Shown in pieces: positions 3,209 through 12,617 of a DNA stretch of 12,617 nt. The notes beneath the pieces are model-generated. The model ran no database searches. It saw only the letters and a list, made by a program, of their open reading frames with translations, and was not told where the DNA came from. Made by a program: the position numbers and the translations under genes. Each line of letters begins with the position of its first letter. Position 1 is the stretch's first letter. Origin of the DNA: a virus. Its lineage: Duplodnaviria > Heunggongvirae > Uroviricota > Caudoviricetes. Location: the IMG/VR virus record IMGVR_UViG_2778261256_000009. One strand, 5' to 3'.

Positions 3209-3733
3209 TTATTGTTTAACCCATAATAATTCATTGACATTGAATCCCAACTTTTGAGCGGTTCGCACATAGTCTGCTTTTACTTTATCTGGAATAGTTG
3301 GGGTCCTTGCCAGAATCCATAGGTATTCTCTGTTCGGACCACTGACAAGAGCATACTTATACTCATCATCCAGTTTGATTACATTATAGCCACCATAGAA
3401 GGGGCCAAAAAACGAAACCTTCAATGCTGCAGTTTTAGTATCTCCAGTAAAGTATGCTTTACCTTCGCTCTCGCTCCATTTATTTTTCGTTGGATCGTAT
3501 CCACGGTTAAGTACACGAATCCCTCCGTCGTTCCGTTTTCCATAAGTAGCGCTGACCTGTTCCAGACCACGTTCGAACCGGTTCTCGAGGCGAGCTATTT
3601 CATACCATTTTCCGAGGTAGCGGTTGGCGTCAAAATTTGTAATCGGCTGCACACCTTTAGGTGGTGTCGGGGCCTTACATGCTATAAGAGTGAAAGAGAG
3701 TGCAATGCCAGTCAACACAGGCCATAACTTCAT
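3209..3733 (-). CDS. blc: Outer-membrane lipocalin lipoprotein, Blc family
   Basis: MKLWPVLTGIALSFTLIAC has a signal peptide and LIAC lipobox. ...NFDANRYLGKWYEIARLENRFERGLE...KVSFFGPFYGGYNVI...YLWILARTP strongly resembles E. coli Blc (recalled). Confidence 0.9.
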   Translation of the reverse strand: MKLWPVLTGIALSFTLIACKAPTPPKGVQPITNFDANRYLGKWYEIARLENRFERGLEQVSATYGKRNDGGIRVLNRGYDPTKNKWSESEGKAYFTGDTKTAALKVSFFGPFYGGYNVIKLDDEYKYALVSGPNREYLWILARTPTIPDKVKADYVRTAQKLGFNVNELLWVKQ

Positions 3734-3925
3734 AATAAATCCTGTACTTTTGATAGTTGAGAGTAAGTATGAAAGATAGATGATTACGACCGATCACTTA
3801 AAGAACTTTCATACTATATTAGGAATAGTCCATAACAGAAAAATTGTCAGTGATGACGCCAGAAAGGCAATTTATTCCGTGCACTACACAGTTTATGTGT
3901 TAATGAATTAGTCAAGGGGGAGAAT

Positions 3926-4885
3926 ATGATAAAAAAACCTGTGATTGGAATCAGCGGTTGTTTGGCCGGTTCTGCTGTTCGTTTTGATGGTGGTCACAAA
4001 AGAGCTGACTTTTTAATGGACAAATTAGTGGAATGGGTAACATTCAGACCAGTATGTCCGGAAATGGCTATAGGGCTGCCAGTTCCGCGTCCTGCTCTAC
4101 GTCTTGTGCGCTCGATGCAAGGAAATATACGGATGTGTTTCAGCCACGACCAGAATGAGGATGTGACAGAGAGAATGACAGAGTTTAGTCGTTCTTATAT
4201 GGACAAATTAAAGGATGTATCGGGGTTTGTGGTTTGTGCTAAATCTCCCAGCTGTGGCATGGAGCGCGTGCGTGTCTATGATGAAAATGGTAATCGAGGT
4301 CGTAAAGATGGAGTGGGACTATTTACGAGCACTTTGATGGAAAAGTTTTCCTGGCTACCGGTTGAAGAGGATGGGCGATTACATGATCCAGTGCTTCGTG
4401 AGAATTTTGTTGAAAGAGTTTTTGCTTTGCATGAGCTCAATCACCTTTACAAGGAGAAATTATCAAGAAGAGAGTTATTAGCTTTTCATAGTCGTTATAA
4501 GCTTCAGTTGTTGGCGCATAGTCAGGCAGGCTATAAAGATATGGGACCATTTGTGGCTGCAATACACGAGTGGGCGGACCTTGAATCATACTTTGAGGTG
4601 TATCGTGATAAGCTGATGGCGATTCTCAGAAAACCTGCATCACGTAAAAATCACACGAATGTGTTGATGCATATACAGGGGTATTTTAGTAACTACTTAA
4701 GTACACGCCAGCGTAAAGAGTTGAGCGAGGTTATACTTAACTATCGTTCTGGCACATTACCTCTTCTTGCGCCGTTGACTCTGCTGAAGCATTATCTGGG
4801 TGAGTATCCTAATGATTACTTGCTTACACAGAATTACTTCGATCCCTATCCGGACGAACTGGCTCTAAGACTGACGGTAAATTAA
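3926..4885 (+). CDS. DUF523 (TudS-like) + DUF1722 fusion protein, YbgA/RudS-like putative [4Fe-4S] thiouracil/4-thiouridine desulfidase
   Basis: N-terminal MIKKPVIGISGCLAGSAVRFDGGHK..RPVCPEM..VVCAKSPSCGME has Cys at approximately residues 12, 44, 104 and 110, consistent with the Cys ligands of TudS-family desulfidases. The C-terminal half resembles DUF1722 (YbgA-like). RBS AAGGGGGAG precedes the ATG. Family assignment is from memory. Confidence 0.7.
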   Translation: MIKKPVIGISGCLAGSAVRFDGGHKRADFLMDKLVEWVTFRPVCPEMAIGLPVPRPALRLVRSMQGNIRMCFSHDQNEDVTERMTEFSRSYMDKLKDVSGFVVCAKSPSCGMERVRVYDENGNRGRKDGVGLFTSTLMEKFSWLPVEEDGRLHDPVLRENFVERVFALHELNHLYKEKLSRRELLAFHSRYKLQLLAHSQAGYKDMGPFVAAIHEWADLESYFEVYRDKLMAILRKPASRKNHTNVLMHIQGYFSNYLSTRQRKELSEVILNYRSGTLPLLAPLTLLKHYLGEYPNDYLLTQNYFDPYPDELALRLTVN

Positions 4886-5227
4886 TTGTATGCGATATCA
4901 TCCAAAAGGATGAGTTCCTGCATGCAGGATATTTACAATCGTAAAAACTACACTATGATACCCAGAGTGTCAGTTTGTATAAAAACTCTGTTTACGCTGA
5001 AGAAACAATTGAGATGCAACTTAAAGTTGGTAAACATGCCAGTCAAAATATATAATATTATGATTCCACGCAGCTATATATAATATAACAGATTGGTTTA
5101 ATAATTTGTCTTTGTGAGTTAAATACATAATTTTATACTTGTGATGCAATGAAATTTTCCTTATTGTTGAACTGGCGAATATTGATTTTCCACCTATACT
5201 TACCTGGTGTAACCCCAATGATATCAG

Positions 5228-5968
5228 GTGGATAATATGCCATACATATGTTCTATCATTTTGGTGTTGAACTCGTTTGATGTCCGAATTGGTAAAGAAG
5301 ATATTTTGTTTAAAAAAGGAAGTGCTGTTCTCATTGATTACAATTTAAAAGATTTTTTTTCATCAAATATAGATCATGTAATGATCGTAGATGTTGAAGA
5401 GAAAACAGTTAATGATTTCTTTAAAAGCAACACACTCTCACCTTTTTCTGTAAGAAGGTTTTATCCGGCATACTTGATGGTGGAATGTGAAGATTTTTCA
5501 TTGTTAAAGAACTTGATTGCATGCTTGAATTGTGATGGCAGAACTGTGGATTTTGTTAGAAATCAAATATCACTTGCATGTCTTGCTATCTTATCTTCAG
5601 AGAAAATAGTGCAAAGTTTTTTATTTGGATGTCTTAATAGTTTAGGAAGTAAAGTTAAGGCTATTATTCACACGGATATATCTGCAGCATGGAGACTTTG
5701 TGATATATCTTCAAGACTGTATCTGAGTGAAAGTCTGTTAAAAAGAAAATTAAAGCACGAAGGCTTATCATTTAGTAAGTTAATTCTTGAAGAGCGAATG
5801 GTGATGGCGGAAAGGTTATTAAGCTACAATTTATATTCTGTTGGAAAAGTTGCTGAGATATGCGGTTATGAAAACACGTCATATTTTGTAAGTGTTTTCA
5901 GAAGGTATTTTGGTGTTCCTCCCCATCAATATTCATCAAGATTTTTTTTAGAAAAAGACATGATGTAA
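5228..5968 (+). CDS. AraC/XylS-family transcriptional regulator (C-terminal HTH), AT-rich
   Basis: The C-terminal region ...LYLSESLLKRKLKHEGLSFSKLILEERMVMAERLLSYNLYSVGKVAEICGYENTSYFVSVFRRYFGVPPHQY is a typical AraC-type double HTH. The gene and its 340-bp upstream region are markedly AT-rich. Start may be ATG 5228 or ATG 5237, which follows AGGTGG. Confidence 0.8.
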   Translation: MDNMPYICSIILVLNSFDVRIGKEDILFKKGSAVLIDYNLKDFFSSNIDHVMIVDVEEKTVNDFFKSNTLSPFSVRRFYPAYLMVECEDFSLLKNLIACLNCDGRTVDFVRNQISLACLAILSSEKIVQSFLFGCLNSLGSKVKAIIHTDISAAWRLCDISSRLYLSESLLKRKLKHEGLSFSKLILEERMVMAERLLSYNLYSVGKVAEICGYENTSYFVSVFRRYFGVPPHQYSSRFFLEKDMM

Positions 5969-8924: not shown

Positions 8925-9061
8925 TATATGGCTGATTTATAATTGTGAGTTTAATATTATGTTGACTCACTCATTGATCCAATACCTAACTTTACCAGCA
9001 ACCCCTCCGTCCCCAGTAGCACTGGCTGCTGGGGTGCGTTTTATTCATAAAGCAAGGCTGT

Positions 9062-9853
9062 ATGAGCGAGAAATTAAAGATAGTCTATCGCCCATTACAA
9101 GAATTGTCACCGTATGCGCACAACGCCAGGACGCACAGCCCTGAGCAGGTGGCACAACTGGTAGAAAGTATTAAGCAATTCGGCTGGACTAATCCGGTGC
9201 TGATTGACGAAAAGGGCGAAATTATTGCGGGTCACGGTCGTGTTATGGCGGCTGAAATGCTCAAAATGGATTCTGTTCCGGTCATTGTTCTGTCTGGCCT
9301 GACGGATGAGCAGAAAAAGGCGTACCGCCTGGCAGATAATCGCCTGCCGATGAATGCTGGCTGGGATGAAGATCTGTTGCGGATGGAGCTGTCGGACCTA
9401 ATCAATGCTGATTTTGATGTCTCCCTGACAGGCTTCATCCCGACAGAAATTGATGAACTGTTGACGGATGTTTTGCCCGGTACAGGAAATGAGGAGGAGC
9501 CGTATACGACGAAAATTGATACGCCTGTTTATGAGCCGTCGGGCGGTAAACCGGATATCAGTGAACTGTACGACGATACGAAAACTCAGGAGCTGATCAG
9601 CCGGATACGTTCGGCGTCCCTTGAGCCTGATATTGAGAAATTCCTCCTGTGTGCGGCAGAACGTCACACGGTGTTTAATTTCAGCAGAATTGCGGACTAT
9701 TACGCTCACGCCCCCTCTGAAATTCAGTGTTTTTTCGAGGAGTCGGCGCTGGTGATCATTGATTATCAGCAGGCTATTGAAAATGGATTTGTCCGGATGA
9801 CGCAGCGCATGGTGGAGATCATGCATGGTGGTGAGGAGGAGGAATATGCGTGA
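9062..9853 (+). CDS. ParB N-terminal-domain (ParB/Srx-like nuclease domain) protein, YnaK-like
   Basis: The N-terminus LKIVYRPLQELSPYAHNARTHSPEQVAQLVESIKQFGWTNPVLIDEKGEIIAGHGRVMAAEML shows the ParB-N fold signature, including a GxxR box. C-terminus is acidic. Occupies the position after trkG that ynaK holds in Rac (recalled). Confidence 0.75.
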   Translation: MSEKLKIVYRPLQELSPYAHNARTHSPEQVAQLVESIKQFGWTNPVLIDEKGEIIAGHGRVMAAEMLKMDSVPVIVLSGLTDEQKKAYRLADNRLPMNAGWDEDLLRMELSDLINADFDVSLTGFIPTEIDELLTDVLPGTGNEEEPYTTKIDTPVYEPSGGKPDISELYDDTKTQELISRIRSASLEPDIEKFLLCAAERHTVFNFSRIADYYAHAPSEIQCFFEESALVIIDYQQAIENGFVRMTQRMVEIMHGGEEEEYA

Positions 9854-10778
9854 TGATTTTTGCGCCTTTATTCTGACTCACGGGCGACCGGACAAAGTTC
9901 TGACTTACCGGACGTTGCGTCGTGCTGGCTATACCGGGAAAATTTTTATCGTTGTTGATGATGAAGATAAGACACGGAATCAGTACATGGCTGAATTTGG
10001 TGAACAGGTGCTGGTGTTTTCCAAAGCCGATATCGCCAGTCGTTTTGACGAAGCCGATAATTTCTGTGACCGCCGCTCAATTTTTTACGCCCGTAATGCC
10101 TGTTTCGACCTGGCAAAACTGGTCGGGTGTAAATACTTCATTCAGCTCGATGATGATTATCACGAGTTCCAGTTTCGGGTGGATCGCAACTATGACCAGG
10201 CCTATTTTCCGATAAGGAAACTGGATGCGATCCTTTCTGAAATGCTGGCGTACTACGAATCAATACCTGCTCTTTCCATCGCTATGTCGCAGGGCGGGGA
10301 TTTTCTTGGTGACAATGGCGGCCATGCTTCGTGGGTGAAACGCAAGGCAATGAACAGCTTTATCTGTTCGGTTGATCGACCGTTCTCATTCATGGGGCGC
10401 ATTAACGAGGATGTGAATACGTACACGAATCTCGGTCGCTGTGGTGAATTGTTTATGACGATCGGTGCTGTCCAGTTAGGGCAGAAACAGACGCAGAAAA
10501 ACAGCGGCGGAATGACCGAGCTGTATCTGGATTCCGGAACCTACGTTAAAAGTTTTTACTCCGTCATGTATGCGCCGTCGTGCGTAAAAATCTCACTGAT
10601 GGGTGCCAGCCATAAACGCATTCACCATCAGGTCACCTGGAACAACGCTGCAGTAAAAATCCTTCACGAAAAATACAGGAAGAAGACACCCTGCATATCA
10701 ATGGGGGTGACAAATGATTCCGTATTCGAAAGTCGAGTCTCTGGCAGCGTGCCGGATGACTGCACAACAAATCGCTGA
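9846..10778 (+). CDS. Uncharacterised protein with a GT-A-fold-like motif pattern (possible nucleotide-sugar transferase); function unknown
   Basis: ATG at 9846 follows a strong GAGGAGGAGG RBS and overlaps the ParB-like stop by 8 nt. The pattern FILTHGRPDKV .. IFIVVDDEDK .. YFIQLDDDYH resembles the beta1 / DD / DxD layout of GT-A glycosyltransferases. This is a motif-level inference only. Confidence 0.55.
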   Translation: MRDDFCAFILTHGRPDKVLTYRTLRRAGYTGKIFIVVDDEDKTRNQYMAEFGEQVLVFSKADIASRFDEADNFCDRRSIFYARNACFDLAKLVGCKYFIQLDDDYHEFQFRVDRNYDQAYFPIRKLDAILSEMLAYYESIPALSIAMSQGGDFLGDNGGHASWVKRKAMNSFICSVDRPFSFMGRINEDVNTYTNLGRCGELFMTIGAVQLGQKQTQKNSGGMTELYLDSGTYVKSFYSVMYAPSCVKISLMGASHKRIHHQVTWNNAAVKILHEKYRKKTPCISMGVTNDSVFESRVSGSVPDDCTTNR

Positions 10779-10965
10779 CGTTCTGGATGTTGATCTGAAC
10801 CGACTGAAAGAAAATCGGGAAGCAATGACAGATTTTTATGCGGCCATCCGTAAGGGCAGAGCGAAAGGTGAAGCCGAGTTACGAGCGGCATTGTTTAAGC
10901 TTGCCAGAAAAGGGGATGCCTTTGCTCTGCGCGAACTACTCAGGGTGGATAAAAATCAGGACTAA
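10756..10965 (+). CDS. Small putative HTH protein immediately upstream of, and in frame with, the terminase small subunit
   Basis: MTAQQIADVLDVDLNRLKENREAMTDFYAAIRKGRAKGEAELRAALFKLARKGDAFALRELL is HTH-like. A single TAA (10963-10965) separates it from the ATG at 10969 in the same frame. Start is ambiguous (10714 or 10756) and overlaps the upstream gene. Confidence 0.4.
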   Translation: MTAQQIADVLDVDLNRLKENREAMTDFYAAIRKGRAKGEAELRAALFKLARKGDAFALRELLRVDKNQD

Positions 10966-10968
10966 CTG

Positions 10969-12063
10969 ATGAGCAGACCGGACTGGGGGGCGTTGCAGCA
11001 GGAGTATATTGCTGAATACACCCGCTCCGGTATATCTCCGGTGGCATGGTGTGAAGCAAGGGGACTGAATTACGCAACAGCCCGTCGTTACATCAAAAAA
11101 ACTCCGAAAAATGCGCAGACAGAAATGTGCAAAACTGCGCAAAAAAGTGCGCAGAAAAAATCTGCGCAGACTGCACAAAAGCGGAACGAAAAATCTCAGG
11201 AAAAAAAGCCAGTATTCGATGCGGGCCTGAATGAGGGCGACGCGGAGGAATTTTCGTTCTGTCCCGATGAATTCGGCATTTCTGACCAGCAGGCTAAGTT
11301 TGCGATGCTTGTTGCTCAGGGTAAAAAGCCGACAGAGGCGTACCGACTAGCCGGTTATGAGGGGCAAGGTGCGACAGCTAACAGCAACGCCAGTCGTATG
11401 CTTAGAAATGCCAGGGTTTTTCGCGCTATCAGCTACTTCCGCAATCAGTACCAGAAACGCTATACCGCAGACCTGGATTTACTAGTGAGTCAGTTGATGG
11501 CTATTGCCCTGGCCGACCCCAATCAGCTTGCACAATTTCGCCGTGTTAACTGCCGTTATTGCTGGGGCGAGAATCATCTCTACCAGTGGCGCGATATAGC
11601 AGAATTCGACAAGGCAGCGGCGCAGGCTTCCAGAGATGGCAAACCCGAACCGGAATATGGAGGCCTCGGCTTTGTTGATAACGCCATACCCAATCCGGAC
11701 TGCCCGAAGTGCTGCGGTGAGGGAACGGGACAGCTTTATATGGCTGATACCACTCTGCTTGATGGGGATGCGCGGCAATTATATGCAGGGGCAAAATTCG
11801 GAAAATTCGGCGTTGAGATCCTGCTGGAGGATAAGGCTGCCGCCCGGCGTGAATTGTTGCGTTTGTTTTCTGCTGGCGGGGCTTTATGTGCAGATAAACG
11901 GCTACAGGAACTGGAAATTGAACGGCGCAGAATGGAAAACCAGAAGCTGCGCAAAGAGATCGAAACGGTGGAAGATAATGAACATCCCCAGCCTGTGGCG
12001 ATCAATATTAATGTGGTTGATGCCAGAGTAAGGAGTGATGAAGATGATCTCTCCGACGCTTAA
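10969..12063 (+). CDS. Terminase small subunit (Terminase_2-like domain) with a low-complexity AQK-rich linker
   Basis: The segment QQAKFAMLVAQGKKPTEAYRLAGYEGQGATANSNASRMLRNARVFRAISYF matches the conserved core of phage terminase small subunits as I know it. Lies immediately upstream of, and overlapping, a Walker-A-containing terminase large subunit. Confidence 0.7.
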   Translation: MSRPDWGALQQEYIAEYTRSGISPVAWCEARGLNYATARRYIKKTPKNAQTEMCKTAQKSAQKKSAQTAQKRNEKSQEKKPVFDAGLNEGDAEEFSFCPDEFGISDQQAKFAMLVAQGKKPTEAYRLAGYEGQGATANSNASRMLRNARVFRAISYFRNQYQKRYTADLDLLVSQLMAIALADPNQLAQFRRVNCRYCWGENHLYQWRDIAEFDKAAAQASRDGKPEPEYGGLGFVDNAIPNPDCPKCCGEGTGQLYMADTTLLDGDARQLYAGAKFGKFGVEILLEDKAAARRELLRLFSAGGALCADKRLQELEIERRRMENQKLRKEIETVEDNEHPQPVAININVVDARVRSDEDDLSDA

Positions 12064-12547
12064 TGTGCCTCAGGCGCGATTTCTTTCAATGCCCCATAAA
12101 TTTAAAGCCTATATTGCTGGTTTTGGCTCGGGCAAAACATGGGTTGGGTGTGGCGGCATATGCAAGGGGATTTGGGAGCATCCAGGTATAAATCAGGGAT
12201 ATTTTGCGCCAACGTATCCCCAAATTCGCGATATTTTTTACCCTACAGTGGAAGAAGTTGCTGCTGACTGGGGATTGAACGTAAAAATTAATGAGGGAAA
12301 TAAAGAGGTTCACTTTTATTACGGACGCCAGTATCGGGGAACCACTATCTGCAGATCGATGGAGAAGCCACAAACGATCGTCGGTTTCAAAATTGGTAAT
12401 GCGTTGGTGGATGAACTGGACATTTTGCCGAAGGAAAAAGCCAGAACGGCGTGGCGCAAGATAATTGCACGTATGCGTTATAAGATTGATGGACTTCGCA
12501 ACGGTATTGACGTTACAACCACGCCGGAAGGATTCAAATTTGGGTGA
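12044..12547 (+). pseudogene. Terminase large subunit, N-terminal ATPase fragment truncated by an IS1 insertion
   Basis: Walker A motif AGFGSGKTW near the N-terminus. The ORF ends at a TGA (12545-12547) supplied by the first bases of the IS1 terminal repeat, so only about 167-170 codons remain; a full TerL would be about 450-600 aa. Start is 12035, 12038 or 12044; 12044 has the best RBS spacing (AGGAG at 12031-12035). Confidence 0.8.
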
Positions 12548-12617
12548 TGCTGCCAACTTACTGATTTAGTGTATGATGGTGTTTTTGAGGTGCTCCAGTG
12601 GCTTCTGTTTCTATCAG
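12543..12617 (+). mobile_element. insA: IS1 left end (terminal inverted repeat plus start of insA), continuing beyond the window
   Basis: GGTGATGCTGCCAACTTACTGATTTAGTGTATGATGGTGTTTTTGAGGTGCTCCAGTGGCTTCTGTTTCTATCAG matches the IS1 end and insA start (GTG at 12598, VASVSI...) as I recall it. Only 75 bp are in the window. Confidence 0.85.

Follow-up and report, generated by a model that had tools for sequence, protein, structure and literature searches.

A coupled gene pair ahead of the terminase genes

The window analysed here, a whole stretch of 12,617 nucleotides from IMG/VR virus record IMGVR_UViG_2778261256_000009 (Caudoviricetes), corresponds in its 12.6-kb content to the late region of a Rac-type lambdoid Escherichia coli prophage. 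Directly upstream of the packaging genes it carries two overlapping open reading frames (ORFs), a ParB-like gene (ORF A) and a predicted glycosyltransferase gene (ORF B), which are the subject of this analysis. The features of the pair are as follows.

9062..9853, plus strand: ORF A, full-length YnaK, a protein of the ParB/Srx fold, 263 aa
9062..9472, plus strand: ParB N-terminal nucleotide-binding domain and short helical segment of ORF A (residues 1-137), with ParB_N over residues 23-90 and a model confidence (pLDDT) of 74-92 over residues 1-130
9503..9583, plus strand: conserved short motif in the otherwise variable acidic linker of ORF A (residues 148-174), Y148-[TS]-x-K-x-x-x-P155-x-Y157-x-P ... 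L169-x-D-x-x-K174
9587..9811, plus strand: helical C-terminal domain of ORF A (residues 176-250), specific to glycosyltransferase-linked ParBs, with invariant F194, L195, R201, H202, F205, D234 and G242
9833..9853, plus strand: translational-coupling junction, with the Shine-Dalgarno run GAGGAGGAGG at 9833-9842, the ATG at 9846 and the ParB stop codon TGA at 9851-9853
9846..10778, plus strand: ORF B, a predicted soluble GT-A glycosyltransferase of the TAGT family, 310 aa plus stop codon

The product of ORF B matches the family PF20691 (TET-Associated Glycosyltransferase, TAGT) with 121.1 bits against a cut-off of 27.5 (E 7.6e-35), over residues 8-222 and model positions 4-205 of 205, and phrog_842 with E 1.1e-103; among its homologues listed, 120 of 120 carry PF20691. 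It belongs to the GT-A (nucleotide-diphospho-sugar transferase) fold, as a sequence-only reading of this DNA had proposed from the acidic motifs near its N-terminus, and these motifs are real and invariant. The residues without variation in the family are D38 and D41 (VVDDED), D102-D103-D104 (LDDDY), N187-E188-D189 and H260-H261, the DxD, NED and HH residues being retained over homologues at 50-100% identity. We infer that the acidic ones comprise the DxD metal/nucleotide-sugar motif and a candidate catalytic base. The catalytic core (residues 1-222) is followed by a basic segment (residues 223-285, isoelectric point, pI, of 9.6) and a non-conserved tail (residues 286-310). This C-terminal tail of about 25 aa (10700-10778) overlaps the next ORF in E. 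coli and is missing from homologues of 285-290 aa. The coordinates first given for the gene are correct; the length of 311 aa quoted with them counted the stop codon. No membrane segment is present in ORF B, neither a flippase nor a GtrA/B partner accompanies it, and no relatives were found by sequence in the PDB, even at E 10. A defence-system reading was rejected: PADLOC was blank for ORF B, and ORF A matched only the ParB domain of the type II methyltransferase model.

ORF A matches ParB_N (PF02195) just over threshold (28.9 bits, cut-off 26.3), phrog_620 with E 8.5e-91, and ParB/Spo0J proteins of the PDB by sequence with E 2e-5, while its AlphaFold2 (AF2) model matches CTP/CDP-bound structures of ParB, Noc and KorB with E about 1e-6, and also PadC (Foldseek). 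By profile and structure matches it lies within the ParB/Srx CTPase-fold superfamily (PF02195), and the earlier call of a ParB N-domain for the first gene holds. The N-domain is most like the ParB portion of phage DNA methyltransferase fusions (phrog_498, E 1.2e-50; PADLOC MTase_II, E 2.2e-38). Its P-motif reads GHGR, with G57 and R60 conserved and a nearly invariant H58 at the place where the GERR motif has the catalytic Glu; among other residues of the nucleotide site, N93 (the Asn of ENxxR) is conserved, N21 stands in place of Gln (C-motif 1), and R23 is not conserved. Judging from these residues, binding of a nucleoside triphosphate is plausible and its hydrolysis doubtful. The protein is strongly acidic (pI 4.5, net charge -25), as is the family as a whole (pI 4.05-5.5).

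In the linker, Y148, P155, Y157 and K174 are invariant in an alignment of the E. coli prophage, Lactobacillus phages and halovirus HHTV-2. The C-terminal domain, over which a Pfam scan of ORF A found no family, is conserved out to HHTV-2 as well, its model being of low to moderate confidence. A phmmer search with residues 141-263 (linker and C-terminal domain) against 1.84 billion representative proteins gave 1189 clusters (50% identity). Of the 150 matches listed, nearly all are 250-310 aa long with a domain of the residues 176-250 type at the C-terminus, and no ParB-TAGT fusion, which would prove an interaction, was seen among them. When the eight longest of the listed proteins were scanned, a ParB N-domain was found in seven and another clear domain in none.

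The identification of ORF A with a partition ParB was rejected (TIGR00180 score of 38.5 against a cut-off of 58.45, no HTH (helix-turn-helix) match in Pfam, no parA in the window or prophage, and a pI of 4.5), and so was a combination of a partition gene with a seroconversion gene, given that no ParA, HTH, membrane segment or Gtr partner is present. Unlike ParB, Noc and KorB of the ParABS systems, ORF A has no HTH/parS-binding domain, ParA gene or ParA-binding motif; it is acidic, and the catalytic Glu is changed to His. Three database names are misleading at this locus: 'chromosome partitioning protein' (in GenBank phage records 'chromosome (plasmid) partitioning protein'), which is not supported; 'GREB1-related protein', the PGAP name of ORF B; and the PHROG/RefSeq name 'beta-glucosyl-HMC-alpha-glucosyltransferase'. 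The last is an over-transfer from phages T2/T6 and is not justified, because no dCMP hydroxymethylase and no alpha-/beta-glucosyltransferase is found here and T4-like relatives are about 23% identical.

ORF A and ORF B overlap by 8 nt (ATGCGTGA, at 9846-9853), and the GAGGAGGAGG run ends 3 nt upstream of the ATG of ORF B. The coupled pair with its 8-nt overlap and strong ribosome-binding site, as read from the letters alone, was thus confirmed in all coordinates, together with its placement just upstream of the packaging genes, where an HTH ORF and the small (TerS) and large (TerL) terminase subunits come next. An 8-nt stop/start overlap recurs across the family in 67 loci, while 11 loci have one of 11 nt and two loci one of 4 nt.

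Conservation, distribution and variants of the pair

Two samples of loci were compared. The first, anchored on the glycosyltransferase, comprised 87 loci (the window, one E. coli chromosome, five metagenome-assembly loci and 80 viral contigs); a ParB homologue stands immediately upstream on the same strand in 86 of them, and about 3 kb upstream in the 87th. The second comprised 80 viral loci anchored on ParB, the query being the distant ParB of Lactobacillus phage c5; a TAGT gene lies downstream on the same strand in all 80, adjacent in 59 and separated by one inserted gene in 21. Over both samples, the two genes occur together in 167 of 167 loci and are directly adjacent in 145, an arrangement far beyond chance. 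The pairwise identities of the two proteins are correlated (r = 0.97, Mantel p = 0.001, 58 non-redundant loci), and the ratio of non-synonymous to synonymous substitution rates (dN/dS), taken where synonymous sites are unsaturated, is 0.06-0.16 for both genes, indicating purifying selection. The TerL encoded downstream spans four Pfam families (TerL_ATPase, Terminase_6N, GpA and Terminase_3); standing ahead of four unrelated TerL families, the pair is a cassette mobile relative to its neighbours.

Among the cultured carriers are Lactobacillus phages c5 (ORF1/ORF2, directly after cos), phi jlb1, LL-Ku and Ld17, Nocardia phage NTR1, Vibrio jumbo phages, and the haloarchaeal virus HHTV-2 (genes 21/22). 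The glycosyltransferases of the Lactobacillus, Nocardia and Vibrio phages and HHTV-2 mostly share 40-47% identity with the E. coli protein, those of Ld17 and LL-Ku 32-47%; for the ParB partner the identity is 39-43% in the three aligned proteins, those of c5, phi jlb1 and HHTV-2. At close range, ten deposited phage records (nine from Escherichia, one from Salmonella) contain the 1.7-kb region of the pair at 99.7-100% identity. Of 5426 complete E. coli genomes, 889 have the full-length pair and 1580 have some or all of it. RefSeq already annotates ParB and glycosyltransferase pairs in c5, phi jlb1 and HHTV-2, and the co-occurrence of ParB, glycosyltransferase and terminase has been described in TET/JBP hypermodification clusters (PMC8256090, PMC13229309, bioRxiv 10.1101/2023.12.21.572611). 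In view of these and of the Pfam TAGT family itself, the claim of the sequence-only reading that the arrangement was not a recognised one is only partly justified.

Several lineages have added genes to the pair. In at least nine ParB-anchored loci, the gene that intervenes between ParB and TAGT is itself a TAGT, a second paralogue; in five or six others (L157 2942-3895; L155, L159, L170, L171, L151) it encodes a His_Phos_1 histidine phosphatase fused to a cytidylyltransferase-like domain, which is nearest to glycerol-3-phosphate cytidylyltransferase and heptose-1-phosphate adenylyltransferase. Going by these similarities, the fusion suggests a phage-encoded step that probably makes an activated donor. 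A radical SAM (S-adenosylmethionine) enzyme is found by Pfam count in six loci between the glycosyltransferase gene(s) and TerS, the gene maps showing the order ParB-TAGT-TAGT-radical SAM in L108 (6417-7373), L115 (6435-7433), L116 (6349-7338), L144 (6334-7347) and L147 (6371-7330), and ParB-TAGT-radical SAM in L118 (4035-5030). These proteins of about 320-335 aa have CxxxCxxC near residue 30-55. Assignment to a radical SAM subtype was rejected, as they fall under every NCBIfam cut-off and match generic MoaA/HydE/SPASM-like cores alone. The enzyme might stand in for an oxygen-dependent dioxygenase by contributing a C-H-activating step, or else tailor the sugar; it is the sole C-H-activating candidate among the variant genes and is absent from the E. 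coli element. One locus has a UDP-galactopyranose mutase. Finally, in L082 (10001-11719) a class I SAM methyltransferase (Methyltransf_12/23) forms the C-terminal part of a fusion with TAGT, the ParB gene lying 3 kb upstream, and this is the only glycosyltransferase-anchored locus in which ParB is not adjacent. Taken together, the variants look like a tailoring pathway around real glycosyl transfer and argue against a decayed or non-catalytic protein; none of the added genes supplies an obvious hydroxylated acceptor.

Possible function of the pair

The two genes very probably form a cognate, co-functioning pair in which ORF B is an active glycosyltransferase. What is observed are the folds, the catalytic motifs, the presence of both genes in all sampled loci, their coupling, co-divergence and purifying selection, the position ahead of the terminase genes, and the lack of an enzyme making hydroxymethyl-pyrimidines; beyond this, we infer an interaction between ParB and glycosyltransferase, DNA as the target, and an anti-restriction role. 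As a tentative proposal, the pair may encode a ParB-assisted, late-expressed glycosyltransferase that modifies phage DNA before packaging. The two genes would then act as one functional unit, expressed late with the packaging genes. ORF B would be a soluble, probably inverting GT-A enzyme of the TAGT family with a nucleotide-activated sugar as donor. The product of ORF A, an acidic protein predicted to combine a nucleotide-binding N-domain of the ParB CTPase fold, a motif-bearing linker and a helical C-terminal domain of its own, with neither an HTH nor a ParA partner, would serve as a cognate activator or targeting subunit of the glycosyltransferase, by analogy with ParBs that activate the phage dioxygenase 5mYOX and with methyltransferase-fused ParB domains. 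The enzyme would glycosylate the phage DNA after replication, before or during packaging, and the modified DNA would be protected from host nucleases. DNA is favoured as the target because of the characterised phage members of the TAGT family, the kinship of the ParB domain with methyltransferase fusions, the precedent of ParB activation, and the position in the packaging operon; conservation across hosts of three phyla and two domains implies a universal substrate. The suggestion of DNA or protein modification made from the sequence alone covered the right range of hypotheses.

The TAGT family owes its name to its link with the TET/JBP dioxygenases, the enzymes that create the 5-hydroxymethyl group to which the sugar is attached, and TET/JBP-type hypermodification clusters were reportedly described by Iyer and colleagues in 2013. 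Burke et al. (2021, PMC8256090) and Pyle et al. (2023, bioRxiv 10.1101/2023.12.21.572611) found phage glycosyltransferases that add sugar to 5-hydroxymethylcytosine (5hmC) made by a methyltransferase and TET, and noted ParB and terminase genes close by; the GT-A-like enzymes of TET/5mYOX clusters, possibly members of PF20691, are a precedent for the family. According to O'Toole et al. (2026, PMC13229309), one subclass of the phage thymine dioxygenase 5mYOX requires a cognate ParB-like protein on double-stranded DNA. That ParB consists of a nucleotide-binding domain, a linker and a C-terminal domain without a DNA-binding domain, and the commonest neighbours in the same study were glycosyltransferases (31%), ParBs (27%) and terminases (19%). 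The pair resembles the 5mYOX/TET/JBP clusters in having beside a modifying enzyme a protein of the ParB-CTPase fold with a nucleotide-binding domain, a short helical segment, a disordered linker, a C-terminal domain and no DNA-binding domain, a likeness of architecture to the published description and not of aligned sequences. As in those clusters, glycosyltransferases and terminases are frequent neighbours, and the top structural matches are the same bacterial ParBs (Myxococcus, Caulobacter). Unlike them, neither the E. coli element nor the sampled relatives have a 5mYOX/TET/JBP gene, and ParB is coupled directly to the glycosyltransferase. The family of its C-terminal domain stands beside TAGT in 80 of 80 sampled loci, whereas the published ParB activates a dioxygenase and not a glycosyltransferase.

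Two other known systems are related to the pair. The beta-glucosyl-HMC-alpha-glucosyltransferase of phages T2/T6 is a PF20691 member (PMC13216743) and shares the GT-A fold with ORF B, to which PHROG/RefSeq transfer its name. However, the two are very distant: T4-like Aeromonas phage homologues are 23% identical with E 2e-4, and the T2/T6 enzymes were not retrieved by tblastn. The T-even enzyme extends glucose on 5hmC made before replication, whereas this lambdoid temperate phage has neither a dCMP hydroxymethylase nor an alpha-/beta-glucosyltransferase. The same 2026 study of T4 reported that 288 of 753 glycosyltransferase-encoding phage genomes have TAGT homologues and no alpha-/beta-glucosyltransferase (PMC13216743). 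The second system, fusions of ParB with DNA methyltransferases (phrog_498; PF02195 with PF01555; PMC12704722), has the closest ParB N-domain and occupies the same spot at the head of the packaging operon, and the logic of joining a ParB module to a nucleic-acid-modifying enzyme is shared. Here, in contrast, the enzyme is a glycosyltransferase on a separate polypeptide, and ParB has its own conserved C-terminal domain. A survey of ParB-fold fusions leaves glycosyltransferases unmentioned (Kaljevic et al., 2025, PMC12704722), and we found no paper that deals with full-length ynaK or with the HHTV-2 and Lactobacillus phage pairs, or that treats or tests ParB plus glycosyltransferase as a unit in the absence of 5mYOX.

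A number of results weigh against DNA as the target, among them the lack of an enzyme that would make the acceptor. No TET/JBP dioxygenase (PF12851) or other source of hydroxymethyl-pyrimidine is present among the ORFs of the window, and no hydroxylated-base enzyme was found in 41.7 kb of the intact Rac-type prophage (racC to gene J), or in the complete 31.8-kb genome of phage c5 (hypothetical ORFs scanned); the precomputed Pfam annotation of three diverse metagenomic loci contains none either. For 52 ORFs from the upstream sides of 11 loci, a pooled scan listing the 25 most frequent families gave no dioxygenase at E < 1.8e-7, seven weak single-member families lying outside the listing; a second pooled scan of neighbour ORFs from diverse loci likewise gave no TET/JBP among the 25 most frequent families listed, a weak single match being possible. 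The scanned large hypothetical ORFs of HHTV-2 contain no TET/JBP, and the idea of a hidden dioxygenase was rejected after these scans of the ORFs of the window, the hypothetical ORFs of the prophage, c5 and HHTV-2, and the two pools of neighbour ORFs. Both the window and the prophage lack a dCMP or dUMP hydroxymethylase and a primary alpha-/beta-glucosyltransferase. To our knowledge, the int-recE arm of Rac, as known from K-12, has no TET/JBP dioxygenase, and we know of no glycosyltransferase that glycosylates a canonical DNA base. With neither 5hmC nor 5-hydroxymethyluracil (5hmU) available, the acceptor would have to be something not yet described. On the side of the ParB-like protein, His takes the place of Glu in the GERR hydrolysis motif, and the Pfam scan and sequence features reveal no recognisable DNA-binding or HTH domain; direct clamping of DNA is not evident, because the protein is acidic throughout and has no such domain. 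Two published findings point the same way: about 65% of glycosyltransferase contigs have neither 5mYOX nor ThyS and were set aside as 'less likely' to act on DNA (Pyle et al., bioRxiv 10.1101/2023.12.21.572611), and human GREB1, a member of the TAGT family, glycosylates a protein (Shin et al., 2021, PMC7968844).

The main rival is protein glycosylation, which we consider possible but somewhat unlikely; its target would be the Tyr/Thr motif of the ParB linker (with glycogenin-like self-priming, or in the manner of GREB1) or a packaging or virion protein of the late operon. GREB1 carries the same Pfam domain as ORF B and is reported to O-GlcNAcylate the oestrogen receptor, but it is a large multidomain cytoplasmic protein with no ParB partner and no phage context (PMC7968844). 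Protein glycosylation needs no modified base, the location beside head and packaging genes suits a virion or packaging target, and the invariant Y148-[TS]...P155-x-Y157 in a variable linker, retained in bacteria and an archaeal virus alike, could plausibly serve as an acceptor or for docking; a docking motif, however, explains the conserved linker equally well. The T2/T6 family member acts on DNA-linked acceptors (PMC13216743), as the tested TET-cluster glycosyltransferases act on DNA (PMC8256090), and the ParB N-domain is nearest to DNA methyltransferase fusions. Moreover, with four unrelated terminase types and very different head genes downstream, a conserved structural target is unlikely, which leaves mainly the ParB partner. 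The remaining two explanations fit poorly. Glycosylation directed at the host, whether of an envelope polymer, a small molecule or a second messenger, would serve superinfection exclusion or the blunting of defence, ParB being a regulator only. We regard it as improbable, even though some variants have envelope-type donor genes (the fusion similar to glycerol-3-phosphate/heptose-1-phosphate nucleotidyltransferases and UDP-galactopyranose mutase) and the cargo gene trkG adjoins the pair in the window and in the intact prophage L001. There is no membrane segment, flippase or GtrA/B partner; the pair sits in the late operon, unlike genes expressed for lysogenic conversion, and phage c5 carries it without an annotated integrase or CI-type repressor. 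Identity stays at 40-47% among Gram-negative, Gram-positive, actinobacterial and haloarchaeal hosts, which have no envelope acceptor in common, and the obligate ParB partner would go unexplained.

Very improbable, finally, is a relic of a TET/JBP-ParB-glycosyltransferase cluster, or a GT-A fold with a structural, non-catalytic part in packaging (e.g., with a ParB-type nuclease at cos/pac). The dioxygenase is indeed absent in every locus examined, prophage decay has truncated many E. coli copies (part of the pair in 1580 genomes versus 889 with the full pair), and a role as packaging accessories has been suggested for ParB-like 'nucleases' encoded near terminases (PMC8256090). Against this stand purifying selection on both genes (dN/dS 0.06-0.16), the invariant catalytic DxD, NED and HH residues, a ParB C-terminal domain family of at least 1000 clusters at 50% identity, and the gain of a second glycosyltransferase and donor-synthesis genes in some lineages, which is the opposite of decay.

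Returning to the modification of phage DNA, the TAGT family and the association of ParB, glycosyltransferase and terminase are already known. What is unusual, and the point of interest, is that the pair stands alone as a widespread cassette, without the dioxygenase that gives the family its name and makes its known acceptor. In its boldest form, which we think unlikely, the solitary pair would be self-sufficient for DNA glycosylation with no hydroxymethyl-pyrimidine handle, the sugar going, for example, to a canonical base, to the backbone or to the end of the DNA, with ParB as an obligate activator. If true, about 1/6 of complete E. coli genomes would carry, in Rac-type prophages, a type of DNA modification so far undescribed, and it would also occur in phages of Firmicutes, Actinobacteria, Vibrio and haloarchaea. 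The switching on of a DNA-modifying enzyme (thymine dioxygenase) by a ParB fold has been shown only recently. The pair is a compact and very widespread two-gene case of the glycosyltransferases lacking both dioxygenase and ThyS, a class that makes up about two thirds of the phage glycosyltransferase contigs and that the main survey set aside. Selection on the pair is clearly purifying, and the E. coli prophage in which it resides is genetically tractable. At stake is either a new DNA modification together with a second class of ParB-dependent enzymes, or a new phage system of protein glycosylation.

Genomic neighbourhood and the deletion in K-12

What E. coli K-12 retains of ynaK is nt 1-254 alone; the gene there encodes 87 aa, and ydaY and a tape-measure fragment come next. 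The intact prophage has ydaY in the tail region, about 11 kb farther downstream, between the tail-tube and tape-measure genes. A deletion of about 11 kb in K-12 has removed the glycosyltransferase, terminase and head genes along with two thirds of the ParB gene, and has brought ydaY next to ynaK. Hence ydaY is not the counterpart of the glycosyltransferase, and the earlier notion that a K-12 Rac counterpart follows ynaK was wrong; K-12 is instead a natural deletion of the module. Many other E. coli homologues of ParB or the glycosyltransferase are chimeric or truncated, being fused to Lom, tail-fibre or NlpC/P60 fragments, and deletions in decaying Rac-type prophages, that of K-12 included, appear often to have a junction in the region of the pair.

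The window starts with genes of the nin region (NinB, phage Dam methylase, NinX, RusA and antiterminator Q). Lysis genes (holin, lysozyme, Rz) and then the potassium transporter gene trkG precede the pair, and downstream of it profile matches and PGAP annotation show a small HTH ORF, TerS and the start of TerL. The neighbouring features are listed below.

780-1367: phage Dam-type N6-adenine methyltransferase, nin region (PF05869, E 9e-65)
3209-3733, minus strand: Blc-like lipocalin, cargo
3926-4885: 2-thiouracil desulfurase + DUF1722 protein, cargo
5228-5968: AraC-family regulator, cargo
9011..9034, plus strand: terminator-like GC-rich hairpin between trkG and the ParB gene, with a 10-bp stem, 7 GC pairs and the T-rich tail TGCGTTTTAT (consensus match only)
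10756..10965, plus strand: small HTH-like ORF, the first packaging gene, 69 aa by PGAP or 83 aa if it starts at 10714 (phrog_309, E 8.3e-23; PGAP annotation in L001)
10969..12063, plus strand: terminase small subunit (Pfam Terminase_2, E 1.2e-8; phrog_51, E 6.5e-76)
12044..12617, plus strand: start of the terminase large subunit, which extends past the end of the window (PGAP annotation of the identical region of L001)

The hairpin at 9011-9034 forms the upstream boundary of the module. Since it separates trkG from the start of the ParB gene, it suggests that trkG is a self-contained cargo gene put into the late operon, whereas the pair presumably depends on Q-antiterminated late transcription reading through the hairpin. 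The Dam-type gene means that the element already has one DNA-modification gene, apparently unrelated to the pair. Another cargo block occupies 3209-5968, between antiterminator Q and the lysis genes; in L001 the same slot holds other genes, for a BCCT transporter, DUF2254, LysR, gamma-glutamylcyclotransferase and MFS proteins. The small ORF of the phrog_309 type resembles the middle of a terminase small subunit, and because a separate Terminase_2 TerS stands next to it, the small subunit may be split or joined by an extra HTH protein.

In the c5-like contigs L092-L095, the largest of the ORFs that follow the pair (567 aa in L092) has LAGLIDADG/homing-endonuclease matches only in Pfam and no terminase-domain match; it may be a large terminase interrupted by an intein, or a free-standing homing endonuclease. 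In a metagenomic phage with the ParB-TAGT pair (L002, 17837-20316), four consecutive genes for GT2-family glycosyltransferases are located just downstream of the major capsid gene, a layout reminiscent of virion-glycosylation cassettes, so that one phage may have two separate glycosylation systems.

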